DNA of 42,050 nucleotides, taken from IMG/VR virus record IMGVR_UViG_2609459854_000002; one strand, 5' to 3'. A program made the position numbers and the translations under genes. Each line of letters opens with the position of its first letter. Positions within the stretch are counted from its first letter, which is position 1. The notes beneath the pieces are model-generated. The model ran no database searches. It was not told the DNA's origin and worked only from the letters and a program-made list of their open reading frames with translations. Of the stretch, positions 30,947 to 35,930 are shown one piece after another. This DNA is from a virus (lineage: Duplodnaviria > Heunggongvirae > Uroviricota > Caudoviricetes).

Positions 30947-31128
30947 GTTTCACTCCTGCTTTGGCTAGTCTGTAAACACCAACAAGGCGCTCTGCGAACG
31001 CCCTGTTATTTGCTGCGGCTACCACTAATCCCTCAGGTGAATCAGGGTGTCGAATCTCTTCTTTTTCCTGGTATTTCTTACGACGTTTTGTCATAATTAC
31101 TCCTGTGGATTGATCCAGTCTTTCTACA

Positions 31129-31407
31129 TCAGGCCTCGAAGAATTCGCCGTTCTTCGGGGCTTTTTCTTTTGTCAGCATTCTGGCTACTTTCTTAGCCAG
31201 CTCCGCCAACTCCTCGTCTTCAACACCCCATTCAAGAACAGCCAGAAGCATTCCCATTTTTGGGATGAAGCTGTCTTTCCATCGAGAAATTTGCGATTCA
31301 TTAATCCCTAACGCGTCGGCAACCTTTCGCTGACCACGTACAGCAATTCGATTCAGGATGTTGCTTGTAATTGCATTCGCTTTCTTGCGAGTACTTGTAA
31401 GTTGCAT
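31129..31407 (-). CDS. CII-like transcriptional activator
   Basis: Contains ...SQISRWKDSFIPKMGMLLAVLEWGVEDEELAELAKKVARML... matching the lambda CII helix-turn-helix and C-terminal region as recalled; start at internal ATG. Confidence 0.7.
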   Translation of the reverse strand: MQLTSTRKKANAITSNILNRIAVRGQRKVADALGINESQISRWKDSFIPKMGMLLAVLEWGVEDEELAELAKKVARMLTKEKAPKNGEFFEA

Positions 31408-31515
31408 ATGTAAGTATTTCCTTAACAAATAAGAAGTTATGCGCATCAACTTATGCGCGTTGTATTCCCGCATTTCGGCGGGAATGAGGACCATGACTGT
31501 TAAAGAGCAATTTGC

Positions 31516-31701
31516 TTATGCCGCTTTGCGGTAAGCGCTTTCTTGATACTTCAGGGCGCCAGCTGTAACGACTTCCAGTCGATAGGCGTCTTTCTCTGGG
31601 ATGACTTCCTTCCACTGAGAGACTGCTGCGTCGCTAATGCCTAACGCTTTAGCTACAGCACGCTGGGTTCCGAAGTGGTCGATAACATCTTTCTTGTACA
31701 T
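31516..31701 (-). CDS. cro: Cro repressor (P22 Cro-like)
   Basis: MYKKDVIDHFGTQRAVAKALGISDAAVSQWKEVIPEKDAYRLEVVTAGALKYQESAYRKAA, near-identical to P22 Cro as recalled. Confidence 0.85.
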   Translation of the reverse strand: MYKKDVIDHFGTQRAVAKALGISDAAVSQWKEVIPEKDAYRLEVVTAGALKYQESAYRKAA

Positions 31702-31781
31702 AGACTCGCTCCGAAATTAAAGAACACTTAAATTATCCACTAAAGGAATCTTAAGTCAAGTTTATTTAAGATGTCTTAACT
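31702..31781. promoter_or_regulatory. OR operator / divergent pR-pRM region
   Basis: Intergenic region between divergent cro and c2 with P22-type operator half-sites (ATTTAAG / CTTAA) e.g. ATTTAAGATGTCTTAACT at 31764..31781. Confidence 0.6.
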
Positions 31782-32432
31782 ATGAAAACTCAATTGATGG
31801 GAGAGCGCATTCGCGCTCGGAGAAAAGAACTCAAGATCAGGCAGGCCGCACTTGGAAAGATGGTCGGCGTGTCTAATGTTGCCATATCTCAGTGGGAACG
31901 CTCTGAGACAGAGCCAAATGGAGAGAATCTTCTCGCCCTGGCTAATGCGTTGAAGTGTTCCCCTGACTATCTGATGAAAGGAGAGGAAAGTCTTTCAAAC
32001 ATTGCCTATCACAGTAGGCATGATCCAAGAGGGTCATACCCTCTGATTAGCTGGGTGAGCGCAGGATGCTGGATGGAAGCTGTAGAACCATATCATAAGC
32101 GTGCAATAGATAACTGGTACGATACAACCGTAGACTGTTCAGAAGATTCGTTTTGGTTGGACGTGAAGGGAGACTCAATGACGGCTCCGGCCGGTCTCAG
32201 TATCCCTGAAGGAATGATAATACTCGTCGATCCTGAAGTAGAGCCGCGTAACGGGAAACTGGTAGTTGCAAAGCTCGAAGGAGAAAACGAGGCAACTTTC
32301 AAGAAGTTAGTTATTGATGCAGGCAGGAAGTTTCTAAAACCACTTAACCCACAATATCCGATGATCGAGATCAACGGAAACTGCAAAATCATCGGCGTAG
32401 TTGTCGATGCAAAACTAGCAAACCTTCCATAA
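31782..32432 (+). CDS. c2: Prophage repressor (P22 C2-like, LexA-type autocleaving)
   Basis: 216 aa; N-terminal HTH and C-terminal ...GDSMTAPAGLSIPEGMIILVDPEVEPRNGKLVVAKLEGENEATFKKL... closely match P22 C2 as recalled. Confidence 0.9.
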   Translation: MKTQLMGERIRARRKELKIRQAALGKMVGVSNVAISQWERSETEPNGENLLALANALKCSPDYLMKGEESLSNIAYHSRHDPRGSYPLISWVSAGCWMEAVEPYHKRAIDNWYDTTVDCSEDSFWLDVKGDSMTAPAGLSIPEGMIILVDPEVEPRNGKLVVAKLEGENEATFKKLVIDAGRKFLKPLNPQYPMIEINGNCKIIGVVVDAKLANLP

Positions 32433-32456
32433 GGGGGCATTCGCCCCTTTTTTTTA
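32433..32456 (+). terminator. Rho-independent terminator after c2
   Basis: GGGGGC attc GCCCC followed by TTTTTTTT immediately after the c2 stop. Confidence 0.6.
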
Positions 32457-32479
32457 TTTCCTTTAAAAATCAAAGCCAA

Positions 32480-32560
32480 ACTTAAGTTACGAAAGAAAAT
32501 TTAAGTTTTCTTCAAAAATACTCTTGACCATTAATTAAAGAGATCTTAAATTTAAGCCAT
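32480..32560 (+). promoter_or_regulatory. Candidate OL / pL region
   Basis: TTGACC (32524..32529), 17-bp spacer, TAAATT (32547..32552) overlapped by operator half-sites (ATTTAAG, CTTAAAT). Confidence 0.4.
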
Positions 32561-32597
32561 CAGCAGGACGCTGGTAGCCAAACGGAACAGATTGGCA

Positions 32598-32639
32598 GGC
32601 TCTTTAACATTGATGGGATTGTCCCGCCGAAATGCGGGA
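32598..32639 (+). promoter_or_regulatory. Candidate nutL (boxA-like plus boxB-like hairpin)
   Basis: GGCTCTTTAACA resembles boxA (CGCTCTTA-type); followed 12 nt later by hairpin TCCCGC cgaaat GCGGGA. Confidence 0.4.
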
Positions 32640-32953
32640 ACCAAAGAGTAGTTGGCTTTGGGGTGACGTGAAGTGCAGCTGCACGACGGCAACCGGAAGA
32701 TAAGCACCCGGCGCGTCACCTACAAAGTCAATTCCATAGGCGTTATGCAGCCGCCACCATATTCAAGAAAGCTGCACAAGAGGTAGGAGGATTTATGTGA
32801 ATACTTACATTCAGTTGAGAGATTAATTAAATAGAACTGATCGAGCAGAGCCCGTGAAGGCTCATAAATGCTCTTCCATCCCCGTCTAATTGGCGGGGAA
32901 GGAAACCACTTTGTAATAAAAAAAATTCCAAAGTTGTTTCATCGGAGGTCAAC

Positions 32954-33259
32954 ATGACAGTAGTCATTACATATCTGGCTGACGATAACGCCAGAAATCG
33001 CCGCAGAGCACGCAGACAGGCTCAACGTGAACAGGCAATGCAAGAGCAGCGACTGGCGCGAAAAATTGCGCTAAAGCTCTCTGGTTGCGTCAGAGCAGAT
33101 AAAGCAGCATCACTCGGAAGCCTTCGCTGCAAGAAGGCAGAAGAAGTCGAGCGTAAACAGAACCGTATTTACTACCGCAAGCCACGCAGTGAAATGGGGG
33201 TGACTTGTGTTGGCCGCCAGAAGCAACGCGGAAAATCAATTCCAGCTTATTACGATTGA
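32954..33259 (+). CDS. N-like transcription antiterminator
   Basis: 101 aa with arginine-rich N-terminal motif (NARNRRRARRQAQREQ); C-terminal half resembles phage 21 N as recalled; first gene downstream of candidate pL/nutL. Confidence 0.65.
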   Translation: MTVVITYLADDNARNRRRARRQAQREQAMQEQRLARKIALKLSGCVRADKAASLGSLRCKKAEEVERKQNRIYYRKPRSEMGVTCVGRQKQRGKSIPAYYD

Positions 33260-33267
33260 GGTGAGAT

Positions 33268-33519
33268 ATGGAATTTCATGAAAGTGCGATTTGTGATTTT
33301 CGCGCTAACGCAAATTCAGTAAAACCACAGCCAATTGCAGTTCTTTTTAAAACAATGGGTGCGTGGGCTGTTTTATGCTTCGCCGCTGATGACACTGACG
33401 CAAGAATGGCAATAGGCCAAGAGATGGAGATGGACCCGACAAACGATGAATTCATAATTTATGGCGCTCCATCTAATTACTTACTTGATACCTGCAACAT
33501 TTACAACAAGGCTGCCTGA
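33268..33519 (+). CDS. Hypothetical protein in ral position (possible Ral-like)
   Basis: 83-aa ORF immediately after N; C-terminus ...NKAA is the same as lambda Ral as recalled, otherwise not recognisable. Confidence 0.35.
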   Translation: MEFHESAICDFRANANSVKPQPIAVLFKTMGAWAVLCFAADDTDARMAIGQEMEMDPTNDEFIIYGAPSNYLLDTCNIYNKAA

Positions 33520-33655
33520 TGGTGGCCTTTATTTTTGGCATAAACAACAGAATAAATACTGCACTGTGTATTCATTCCAACGAGTGAATACACGGAGCAA
33601 TGTCGCTCGTAACTAAACAGGAGCCGACTTGTTCTGATTATTTGAAATCTTCTTT

Positions 33656-33685
33656 GCCCTCCAGTGTGAGGGCCTTTTTATATGC
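33656..33685 (+). terminator. Terminator-like hairpin (tL-type)
   Basis: GCCCTC cagtgt GAGGGC followed by CTTTTTAT, upstream of cIII. Confidence 0.45.
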
Positions 33686-33742
33686 ATACCAATAACGCTT
33701 CACTCGAGGCGTTTTTAGTTATGCATAAATAAGGATCACACC

Positions 33743-33868
33743 ATGCAATATGCCATTGCAGGGTGGCCTGTTGCTGGCTGCCCTTCCGAATCTTTACTTG
33801 AACGAATCACCCGTAAATTACGTGACGGATGGAAAAGAGTTGAGGTCTTATTATGCGCAATGAAATAG
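33743..33868 (+). CDS. cIII: CIII-like protein (FtsH inhibitor), C-terminally divergent
   Basis: MQYAIAGWPVAGCPSESLLERITRKLRDGWKR matches the lambda CIII N-terminus as recalled; 41 codons, not in track because under 60 aa. Confidence 0.7.
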   Translation: MQYAIAGWPVAGCPSESLLERITRKLRDGWKRVEVLLCAMK

Positions 33869-34005
33869 CCATTAATCACCAGATGCTTCGTGCGGCACAA
33901 AACAAAGCAGTAATAGCCAGATTTATTGGTGATTCAAAAATGTGGCTTGAAGCAAATAAAGCGATGAAATCAGCTATCAACCTTCCGTGGTATCGCAGGA
34001 AATGA
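33853..34005 (+). CDS. Kil-like small protein (tentative)
   Basis: 49-codon ORF overlapping the cIII end; ...AVIARFIGDSKMWLEANKAM... loosely resembles lambda Kil as recalled; position matches. Confidence 0.4.
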   Translation: MRNEIAINHQMLRAAQNKAVIARFIGDSKMWLEANKAMKSAINLPWYRRK

Positions 34006-35450: not shown

Positions 35451-35930
35451 ATGAAAATCTGCTCAAGATGCCATCAACAGAAGGAAGAAAGGGACTTTCA
35501 AATCAGAAGAGCATCCAGAGATGGATTAACTGCCGCTTGCCGGGCTTGCCTGGCTGAATATGACAAAGAGCGCGCGGGATTGCCACATCGAGTATCAGCA
35601 AGGAGAGAATATCAATCATCGGAACGCGGCAGAGAACGGTGTAACGCAGCCAAAAAGCGGTTCATTCAGAGCAACCCATGGAAAAGAAAAGCCCACATCA
35701 TCGTGGGTAATTTTTTGCGCGACGGTAAGCTAATCCGACCACCACAATGTGAGTGCTGCGGATCAGAATGTAAACCACAGGCGCACCACTGCGACTACAG
35801 CAAACCAACCGATGTGATGTGGCTCTGCAAGTCATGTCATGTCGAGTGGCACAAACATAACAAACCTATCTACCCAGACGAGGAGCCAGTAACTCTCCCC
35901 TTCCCTCGTCACGCTATTCACGCAATTTAA
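35451..35930 (+). CDS. Cys-rich protein with HNH-like C-terminal motif
   Basis: N-terminal CSRC...CRAC zinc-ribbon-like pairs; C-terminal CECCGSECKPQAHHCDYSKPTDVMWLCKSCHVEWH resembles an HNH nuclease core. Confidence 0.45.
   Translation: MKICSRCHQQKEERDFQIRRASRDGLTAACRACLAEYDKERAGLPHRVSARREYQSSERGRERCNAAKKRFIQSNPWKRKAHIIVGNFLRDGKLIRPPQCECCGSECKPQAHHCDYSKPTDVMWLCKSCHVEWHKHNKPIYPDEEPVTLPFPRHAIHAI

Follow-up and report, generated by a model that had tools for sequence, protein, structure and literature searches.

A close described counterpart of the element reported here is the leader of the N gene in phage lambda. In that phage, N and Nus factors bound at NutL repress the translation of N, and the RNA in between is highly structured (PMC5725501). 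RNase III modulates this NutL-mediated repression according to a title among the works cited there (Wilson 1997 and 2002), the lambda N leader appears in a list of RNase III targets that gives Steege 1987 as the source (PMC5371410), and the rnc70 mutant acts on lambda N mRNA (PMC8708148). We here analyse the untranslated stretch upstream of the N gene in a virus of the Caudoviricetes (IMG/VR record IMGVR_UViG_2609459854_000002), using one strand of 42,050 nucleotides (nt), which is referred to as the window.

We regard it as probable that this stretch forms the 5' leader of the transcript from pL in a lambdoid phage of the CUS-3/HK620 kind, and that it combines nutL, a lambda-type N-leader hairpin and a structured insert. 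The leader is an ordinary early-left control RNA of a lambda-like phage, its nutL and N-leader hairpin being of a well-known kind. An initial annotation had pointed to a boxA, a boxB, an inverted repeat and a nested palindrome at this position. Taken singly, the palindrome, the 7-nt inverted repeat and the boxA-boxB fold all lie within chance; the evidence for the features is the duplication of the nut site, the extension of the helix and the comparison with relatives.

The pL leader and its nut sites

Over the cI-N interval the window is 97.9 % identical to CUS-3, and it represents a P22-like/lambdoid phage close to CUS-3. On the plus strand cI (31782-32432), a terminator (32431-32450), pL, the untranslated stretch and N (32954-33259) follow each other in the order also found in CUS-3, HK620 and phage 21, while the minus strand carries cro, cII and the replication genes, all directed leftward. 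The candidate pL that the initial annotation had assumed upstream of the leader was recovered in a sigma-70 promoter scan at 32524-32552 on the plus strand, with the -35 element TTGACC, a 17-nt spacer and the -10 element TAAATT. Alignment to the annotated phage 21, HK620, HK140 and CUS-3 records places the start of transcription at A32559, which aligns with the base annotated as 'transcription start pL' in the phage 21 record. The predicted 5' end of the transcript, ATCAGCAGGACGC, also follows the OL1 operator in lambda with all of its 13 nt, where we take the pL start to lie at 35582. With the start at A32559, the leader comes to 395 nt in the window, compared to 223 nt in lambda and ~190 nt in HK620 when counted likewise. 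A perfect 12-bp palindrome, CTTAAATTTAAG, overlaps the pL -10 element at 32545-32556 and matches the half-sites that OL657228 annotates for OL operators of the phage 21 type.

The boxA-like sequence GGCTCTTTAACA at 32598-32609 and the hairpin TCCCGC-CGAAAT-GCGGGA with a 6-bp stem at 32622-32639, both noted in the initial annotation, are found exactly there. In our delineation, the nutL boxA is GCTCTTTAACA at 32599-32609 and boxB occupies 32622-32639, both on the plus strand, boxB being folded into a 6-bp stem (TCCCGC/GCGGGA) and a 6-nt loop (CGAAAT) with a GAAA core. This nutL sits 40 nt past the inferred pL start and upstream of N. The exact boxA occurs twice in the 42 kb, once after pL on the plus strand and once after cro on the minus strand, and the same holds for the exact 18-nt boxB hairpin. 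The second pair forms nutR in the pR transcript, downstream of cro (31466-31508, minus strand; boxA 31498-31508, boxB 31466-31483). Both copies are oriented as expected of nutL and nutR, and we assign this arrangement because boxA and boxB are duplicated exactly after cro; boxB starts 12 nt after boxA in nutL and 14 nt after it in nutR. Furthermore, the HK620 record labels the identical 42 nt 'nutL; putative', and the nutL boxA is invariant among CUS-3, HK620, HK140 and phage 21. It matches the rrn boxA consensus UGCUCUUUA (PMC2724277) at 8 of 9 positions, and by this comparison its core GCUCUUUA is of the rrn type rather than of the lambda type CGCUCUUA.

To relate boxB to its presumed partner, we gathered ~200 lambdoid pL leaders. 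Wherever N carries the motif DNARNRRRARRQAQRE (~95 leaders), a hairpin with the CGAAAU loop follows boxA at a distance of 14 nt, and for two close variants of this motif the boxB stems are changed in a compensated manner. In the same scan the P22-type motif pairs with GCGCU-GACAA-AGCGC and the phage 21-type motif with UCUCAAC-CUAACC-GUUGAGA, which we take to be the published boxBs of these two phages. The HK620 label, the exact nutR twin and this tracking of the N motif bear out the boxA/boxB nut candidate of the initial annotation, and we assign 32599-32639 with high confidence to the nutL of an HK620/CUS-3-type N, whose binding and antitermination at this site are putative. As H-19B NUT sites have spacer dyads, we also considered 32622-32639 as a spacer 'reducer' in place of boxB; this was rejected because the identical hairpin recurs in nutR and tracks the arginine-rich motif of N. 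Hairpins downstream of boxB differ between nutL and nutR. No terminator-like sites were found by the terminator scan in 32451-33508.

N itself is preceded by the ribosome-binding site GGAGG (32944-32948) and encodes 101 amino acids (aa) at 32954-33259 on the plus strand, as taken from the list of open reading frames (ORFs). It shares 66 % identity with the N of phage 21, and nearly all differences fall in residues 1-32, which hold the arginine-rich motif.

As a side observation at nutR, the longest cII frame (31129-31494, minus strand; 121 aa, or 126 aa as annotated in CUS-3) runs through the nut site, and the phage 21 record gives a shorter cII of 99 aa that starts after nutR/tR1, for which reason the long cII call is probably over-extended.

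The long leader helix

Downstream of nutL the initial annotation had described an inverted repeat, GGTGACG at 32662-32668 and CGTCACC at 32714-32720. The repeat is present at these positions and is a real and conserved structure, but its extent was underestimated: it forms the upper part of a helix of ~20 bp reaching from 32651 to 32732 on the plus strand, with the 5' arm at 32651-32670 and the 3' arm at 32712-32732. This long helix lies between nutL and the N ribosome-binding site, comprises ~20 pairs with one bulge, or about two helical turns, and closes a three-way junction. RNA folding, which had been proposed as a check, gave a z value of -4.6 for the long helix (-37.6 kcal/mol, with none of 200 shuffles as stable) and of -5.5 for the insert, whereas the boxA-boxB stretch alone, at z = -0.63, folds no better than its shuffles.

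The base of the helix, GGCUUUGGGGUG.../...CAAAG, is homologous to the lambda N-leader hairpin. Its 5' arm has GGCTTTGGGGTG in common with lambda, identical in 12 of 12 nt and equally placed with respect to boxB; the whole arm is GGCUUUGGGGUGACGUG in the window, compared to GGCUUUGGGGUGUGUG in lambda. For the 3' arm, the window has CGCGUCACC-UA-CAAAGUC where lambda has CACACACC-A-CCAAAGCU, so that CACC.(C/A)CAAAG is common to both. The likeness to the lambda N leader that the initial annotation had suggested for the larger element is borne out by the same position and the shared base sequence, and cleavage by RNase III would follow by homology.

This structure extends well beyond lambda. The base helix GGCUUUGG/CCAAAG, followed by a one-base bulge and ~9 more pairs, is found in nearly all of the ~200 lambdoid leaders, where it encloses unrelated interiors, the whole element spanning between ~35 and 234 nt. 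Upper arms that are unrelated in sequence are yet complementary, as in GAUUGGAUG/CAUCCAAUC and GACUGGCAG/GCCAGU. We aligned 30 distinct interior cassettes of the type found here (type I; alignment A2), taken from leaders of at least six N types including those of lambda, P22 and phage 21. In this alignment 96.4 % of the cells of the outer helix are paired and 9 of its 19 pairs are changed on both sides. For the whole structure, 94.8 % of cells are paired compared to 88.1 % in shuffles, and 13 pairs carry double changes, against 7.3 ± 1.4 in shuffled and 1-4 in slid controls. In leaders free of an insert (lambda, phage 21, HK620 and most others examined) a gap of 10-22 nt lies between the end of the 3' arm and the N ATG.

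The comparison supports homology between the long helix and the N-leader hairpin of lambda, a reported target of RNase III. As homology to lambda and conserved structure coincide, the reading of the helix as a likely RNase III substrate is well supported, with cleavage itself deduced from the lambda case. Several points weigh against this account of the leader. The 3' arm is separated from the N ATG by ~222 nt owing to the 208-nt insert described below, and the helix does not adjoin the N Shine-Dalgarno sequence; because the insert parts the two, a lambda-like effect of cleavage on the access to the ribosome-binding site may not carry over. In addition, the 3' arm reads CCTACAAAG here instead of CCGCCAAAG, since the window has TA at 32721-32723 in place of the GC found in CUS-3, HK620 and every other type-I leader of the sample. 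This change replaces the usual 1-nt bulge by a G.U pair and a shifted bulge, and makes the helix less stable than that of CUS-3 by ~3 kcal/mol. The boxB hairpin is by itself not unusually stable, and the Pfam N_peptide match of N is weak (20.4 bits, compared to a cut-off of 27.9). Finally, the cuts predicted near 32661/32662 and 32723/32724 are set by analogy to what we take to be the lambda cleavage positions.

Inside the helix, the perfect 12-bp palindrome GTGCAGCTGCAC lies at 32673-32684 on the plus strand as initially annotated. Its role as part of a structured element did not hold up, as its occurrence in the DNA is at chance level and its hairpin shows poor conservation. Perfect 12-bp palindromes number 8 in the window, compared to 10.6 ± 3.5 in shuffles, and perfect 7-nt inverted repeats spaced 30-60 nt number 117. 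The palindrome can form a hairpin of at most 4 bp with an AGCU loop, for which 82.6 % of cells in alignment A2 are paired and the outer pair is missing in 14 of the 30 sequences; RNAalifold favours a different 3-bp helix, GCU/RGC, with two compensatory changes in one lineage. The neighbouring interior hairpin 2 (32693-32711, plus strand; CCGG, loop AAGATAAGCAC, CCGG) is paired in 98.4 % of cells, with compensatory changes in three of its five pairs. Its 11-nt loop AAGAUAAGCAC (32697-32707) is nearly invariant across leaders of at least six N types, while the stem covaries. As judged from the alignment, the conserved interior element is hairpin 2 and not the palindrome. A search of the window for the complement of the loop returned chance-level matches only.

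The 5' core of the long helix has a second potential partner. CCAAAG at 32641-32646, just after boxB, can pair with CTTTGG at 32656-32661 to form a small alternative hairpin (32641-32661, plus strand), which was identified by folding and covariation. An equivalent small hairpin is predicted in nearly all lambdoid N leaders examined, and its two sides covary (CCGAAG/CUUCGG, CCAGAGU/GCUCUGG, CCGGAGC/GCUCUGG, CCAGAAC/GUUUUGG and CCAAAC/GUUUGG), in some lineages with the distal 3' arm unchanged. At least six contiguous pairs are possible in 45 of 46 distinct leaders (98 %) compared to 40 % of shuffles, a control that discriminates only moderately, and the support for the small hairpin comes mainly from the covariation. 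With -8.4 kcal/mol it is no match for the long helix at equilibrium, which suggests that it could act as a co-transcriptional intermediate or as the 3'-terminal hairpin of a NUTL fragment released by RNase III.

Other explanations for these conserved structures were weighed against the RNase III reading. The long helix might serve as a compaction or scaffold element that brings NUTL and the N/Nus-polymerase complex near the N ribosome-binding site, or that rids the long untranslated leader of sites at which Rho could load; its being double-stranded would then count, and cleavage would not. We consider this unlikely as a replacement for the RNase III reading, with which it is compatible. Structured RNA between NutL and the N Shine-Dalgarno sequence has been suggested to affect the compactness of the loop in repression (PMC5725501), the interior is freely swapped while the base helix is retained, and some leaders (L095) even reduce the element to a bare hairpin spanning ~35-45 nt. 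On the other hand, its homologue in the lambda leader figures in the list of RNase III targets, a duplex of two turns with a conserved bulge has the shape expected of an RNase III substrate, and with the 208-nt insert the helix no longer places NUTL next to the ribosome-binding site in the window.

Incidental RNA structure is a still less probable explanation. In that case the conserved segments ATCAGCAGGACGC, GGCTTTGGGG and CCAAAG would be DNA 'boundary sequences', that is recombination linkers between mosaic modules, and indeed 'bsq5; boundary sequence' is the label given in the CUS-3 record to all of the DNA between cI and N, interiors and inserts are exchanged exactly at the conserved blocks, and a recombinant allele of the insert has its crossover in such a block. 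Linker DNA would, however, need no compensatory changes, whereas nine pairs of the helix are changed on both sides and the unrelated upper arms named above stay complementary. It is very improbable that the palindrome or the inverted repeat is a protein-binding site in the DNA, or that the stretch encodes a small protein in the 37-aa GTG frame at 32673-32786. Such readings could draw on the perfect palindrome with its CAGCTG and on the HK140 record, which annotates a 41-aa hypothetical protein (HK140_048-like) at the position equivalent to the GTG frame. The palindrome is nevertheless imperfect in most homologues besides being at chance frequency, and we rejected it as a significant DNA element; the small ORF was likewise rejected, as one-base indels among the homologues break any frame and no Shine-Dalgarno sequence precedes GTG 32673. 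The nearly invariant stretch of the interior is moreover the unpaired loop of hairpin 2, the stem of which changes by compensatory substitution. The 'hypothetical protein' of 37-41 aa called in HK140 is thus most likely not a gene.

The insert between the helix and N

The initial annotation had placed N about 230 nt away from the inverted repeat, and the N ATG at 32954 indeed lies 234 nt after 32720. This distance, and with it the unusual length of the leader, arises from a 208-nt structured insert ('module D', 32733-32940, plus strand) placed between the long helix and the ribosome-binding site of N. The insert is missing from HK620 and phage 21, in which the N Shine-Dalgarno sequence directly follows the 3' arm. 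Among 50,697 phage records, the insert is present in CUS-3 and HK140 and in no other; it also occurs in 158 of 5,426 complete E. coli genomes. Within the leader sample it always stands upstream of an HK620/CUS-3-type N, in 34 of the ~95 leaders of that type. It exists as two alleles of ~71 % identity and one recombinant, whose crossover lies in a conserved block.

Three blocks are conserved in the insert. The first, AGGAGGATTTATGTGAAT, contains AGGAGG-N5-ATGTGA at 32786-32800 (plus strand), a strong Shine-Dalgarno sequence followed by an AUG-UGA start-stop. The second is the boxA-like ATGCTCTT at 32868-32875 (plus strand), which matches the rrn boxA at 7-8 of 9 positions, is accompanied by a hairpin and is partly buried in a stem. 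The third is the terminal hairpin, the 3' strand of which, AUUCCAAAGUUGUUUC, abuts the N Shine-Dalgarno sequence. A further hairpin, CCCCG..CGGGG, is located on the plus strand within 32733-32940, as is the terminal one. Only three pairs of the insert show a compensatory change, the sample amounting effectively to two independent sequences.

A BLAST comparison of the insert to the other leaders returned short matches only. Its 5' end, GCGAAATGCAGCCGCC, resembles the type-I interior, and GGAGGATTTATG corresponds to the start of another N-like gene, with its ribosome-binding site and ATG; these short matches suggest that the insert may have been left behind by recombination with a different leader or the start of a gene. 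The insert holds no promoter or terminator as judged by the promoter/terminator scan, no Rfam match at E up to 10 and no conserved ORF.

Related leaders carry other material at the same place and at a second one. In three IMG/VR leaders (L028, L030 and L047) the helix-N junction holds, in place of the 208-nt insert, a 39-aa hydrophobic ORF, MLDIMTNPILGGLVTTFAICFGFTIWSEVDDWMWERKNK, with a ribosome-binding site of its own. Three others (L036, L050 and L057, also IMG/VR) carry a different insert of ~250 nt, starting with CTGAGTTTAACCAAACAGGAGGTGCC..., between boxB and the CAAAG element, and reach 447-653 nt when the count begins 45 nt before boxA and includes the ATG of N. As both the helix-N junction and the site after boxB accommodate other inserts in relatives, the sequences compared here mark the leader as a mosaic hotspot.

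For the leader as a whole, the scan of both strands found no promoter or terminator, as in the insert, and we therefore regard an internal promoter, an attenuator-terminator and an antisense small RNA gene as unsupported candidates. Among the prophage small RNAs AgvB/AsxR and Pas described in the literature, none maps to the pL-N leader. Rfam 15, searched over 31000-34000 with E up to 10, gave no match within the leader (32559-32953). The sole significant match in the searched region is Lambda_thermo, the cIII translational thermoregulator, at 33730-33788 (80.3 bits, E = 4e-19), which marks the start of cIII on the pL operon. Directly after N, an 83-aa ORF (33268-33519) that has no Pfam match takes the position of ral in CUS-3 and phage 21, and a terminator-like hairpin at 33508-33529 overlaps its 3' end.

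A model of the leader and its place among known systems

A course of events can be proposed from these features. Transcription of 32599-32639 would yield the nutL RNA, in which boxA (GCUCUUUAACA) is the expected site for NusB/NusE and boxB (UCCCGC-CGAAAU-GCGGGA) that for the arginine-rich N-terminus of N; the resulting N/Nus complex would make RNA polymerase resistant to downstream terminators. Right after boxB, CCAAAG and CUUUGG may form the small hairpin, which could give way to the long helix, by far the more stable of the two, after transcription of the 3' arm. The ~20-bp helix would then close the three-way junction as the homologue of the lambda N-leader hairpin, and RNase III would be expected to cut its lower stem near the bulge, at about 32661/32662 and 32723/32724, thereby parting NUTL from the N coding RNA. 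Processed lambda N mRNA has a short 5' untranslated region (UTR). Here, the processed N mRNA would retain a structured 5' UTR of ~230 nt, as the insert lies between the helix and the N Shine-Dalgarno sequence. The sequence features, the homology, the covariation and the coupling of boxB to the arginine-rich motif of N are direct observations; the binding of proteins, cleavage by RNase III and a possible influence on how N is translated would follow from them by analogy.

More tentatively, and with considerable doubt, the lambdoid N leader can be pictured as a modular RNA switch and not as a plain processing site. Three mutually complementary elements, the upstream CCAAAG, CUUUGG and the downstream CCAAAG, may permit either the small hairpin or the long helix to form. 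The small hairpin could, for instance, protect the NUTL fragment at its 3' end as a cap after release, or determine when the long helix folds. In the exchangeable interior cassette, the loop AAGAUAAGCAC might provide a protein or tertiary contact. In this phage lineage the insert, with its conserved strong Shine-Dalgarno sequence and AUG-UGA start-stop, its boxA-like AUGCUCUU and the hairpin next to the Shine-Dalgarno sequence of N, may act in cis as a functional regulator by which the translation of N is freed from NUTL/RNase III control or retuned.

As a gain for annotation, pL, nutL, nutR, the leader helix and the N start are now fixed in a CUS-3-like phage. Beyond that, the analysis offers three leads. 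Many N types have kept the base of the long helix and the small hairpin that competes with it, while the interior is exchanged like a cassette; one interior loop is nearly invariant; and inserts have a hotspot where the helix gives way to the N ribosome-binding site, the 208-nt insert being one that should alter the control of N translation. The novelty is modest and consists of the insert, the conserved loop and the competing hairpin, which concern the fine control of a classic circuit and do not amount to a new kind of system.

Compared to lambda, the order of elements is the same, from the pL start with its identical first 13 nt through boxA, boxB, the small CAAAG/CUUUG hairpin and the long helix to the N ribosome-binding site, and the helix base GGCUUUGGGGUG/CC.AAAG is common to both. 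The two differ in boxA, CGCUCUUA in lambda and the rrn-type GCUCUUUA here, in the boxB loop (GAAGA compared to CGAAAU), and in the boxB stem and the arginine-rich motif of N. The interior cassettes of the helix are unrelated, and the element measures ~123 nt in lambda and 76 nt here. The lambda hairpin is a reported RNase III target and its counterpart in the window a predicted one, which is followed by 208 additional nt before the N Shine-Dalgarno sequence.

The related phages HK620 (AF335538), CUS-3 (CP000711) and HK140 (JQ086370) share the pL start, boxA, boxB and the long helix in identical or near-identical form, and the GC-to-TA change in the 3' arm is private to the window. CUS-3 and HK140 also carry the 208-nt insert, whereas in HK620 N directly follows the helix; none of the three records has an annotated feature for the insert, the small hairpin or the long helix. 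Phage 21 (OL657228), whose N-boxB complex is known, has an N that is nearly identical over its C-terminal two-thirds and a leader with a type-I cassette, in which both helices show compensatory changes and the loop AAGAUAAGCAC is identical. It differs by a boxB of the form CUCAAC-CUAACC-GUUGAG at the same place, by the arginine-rich motif GTAKSRYKARRAELIAERR and by the lack of an insert before N.

A more distant parallel is provided by the E. coli rrn leader, arranged as boxB-boxA-boxC. Its consensus GCUCUUUA equals the boxA core found here, and in both systems a G/U-rich segment just past the Nus-loading site is the 5' strand of a long RNase III-type duplex, the RNase III stem of the 16S RNA being formed partly by boxC. 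The rrn leader operates with no N protein and the partner strand of its duplex lies ~1.7 kb away, beyond the 16S gene, whereas in the leader described here the partner is found at a distance of 60 nt and boxB follows boxA.

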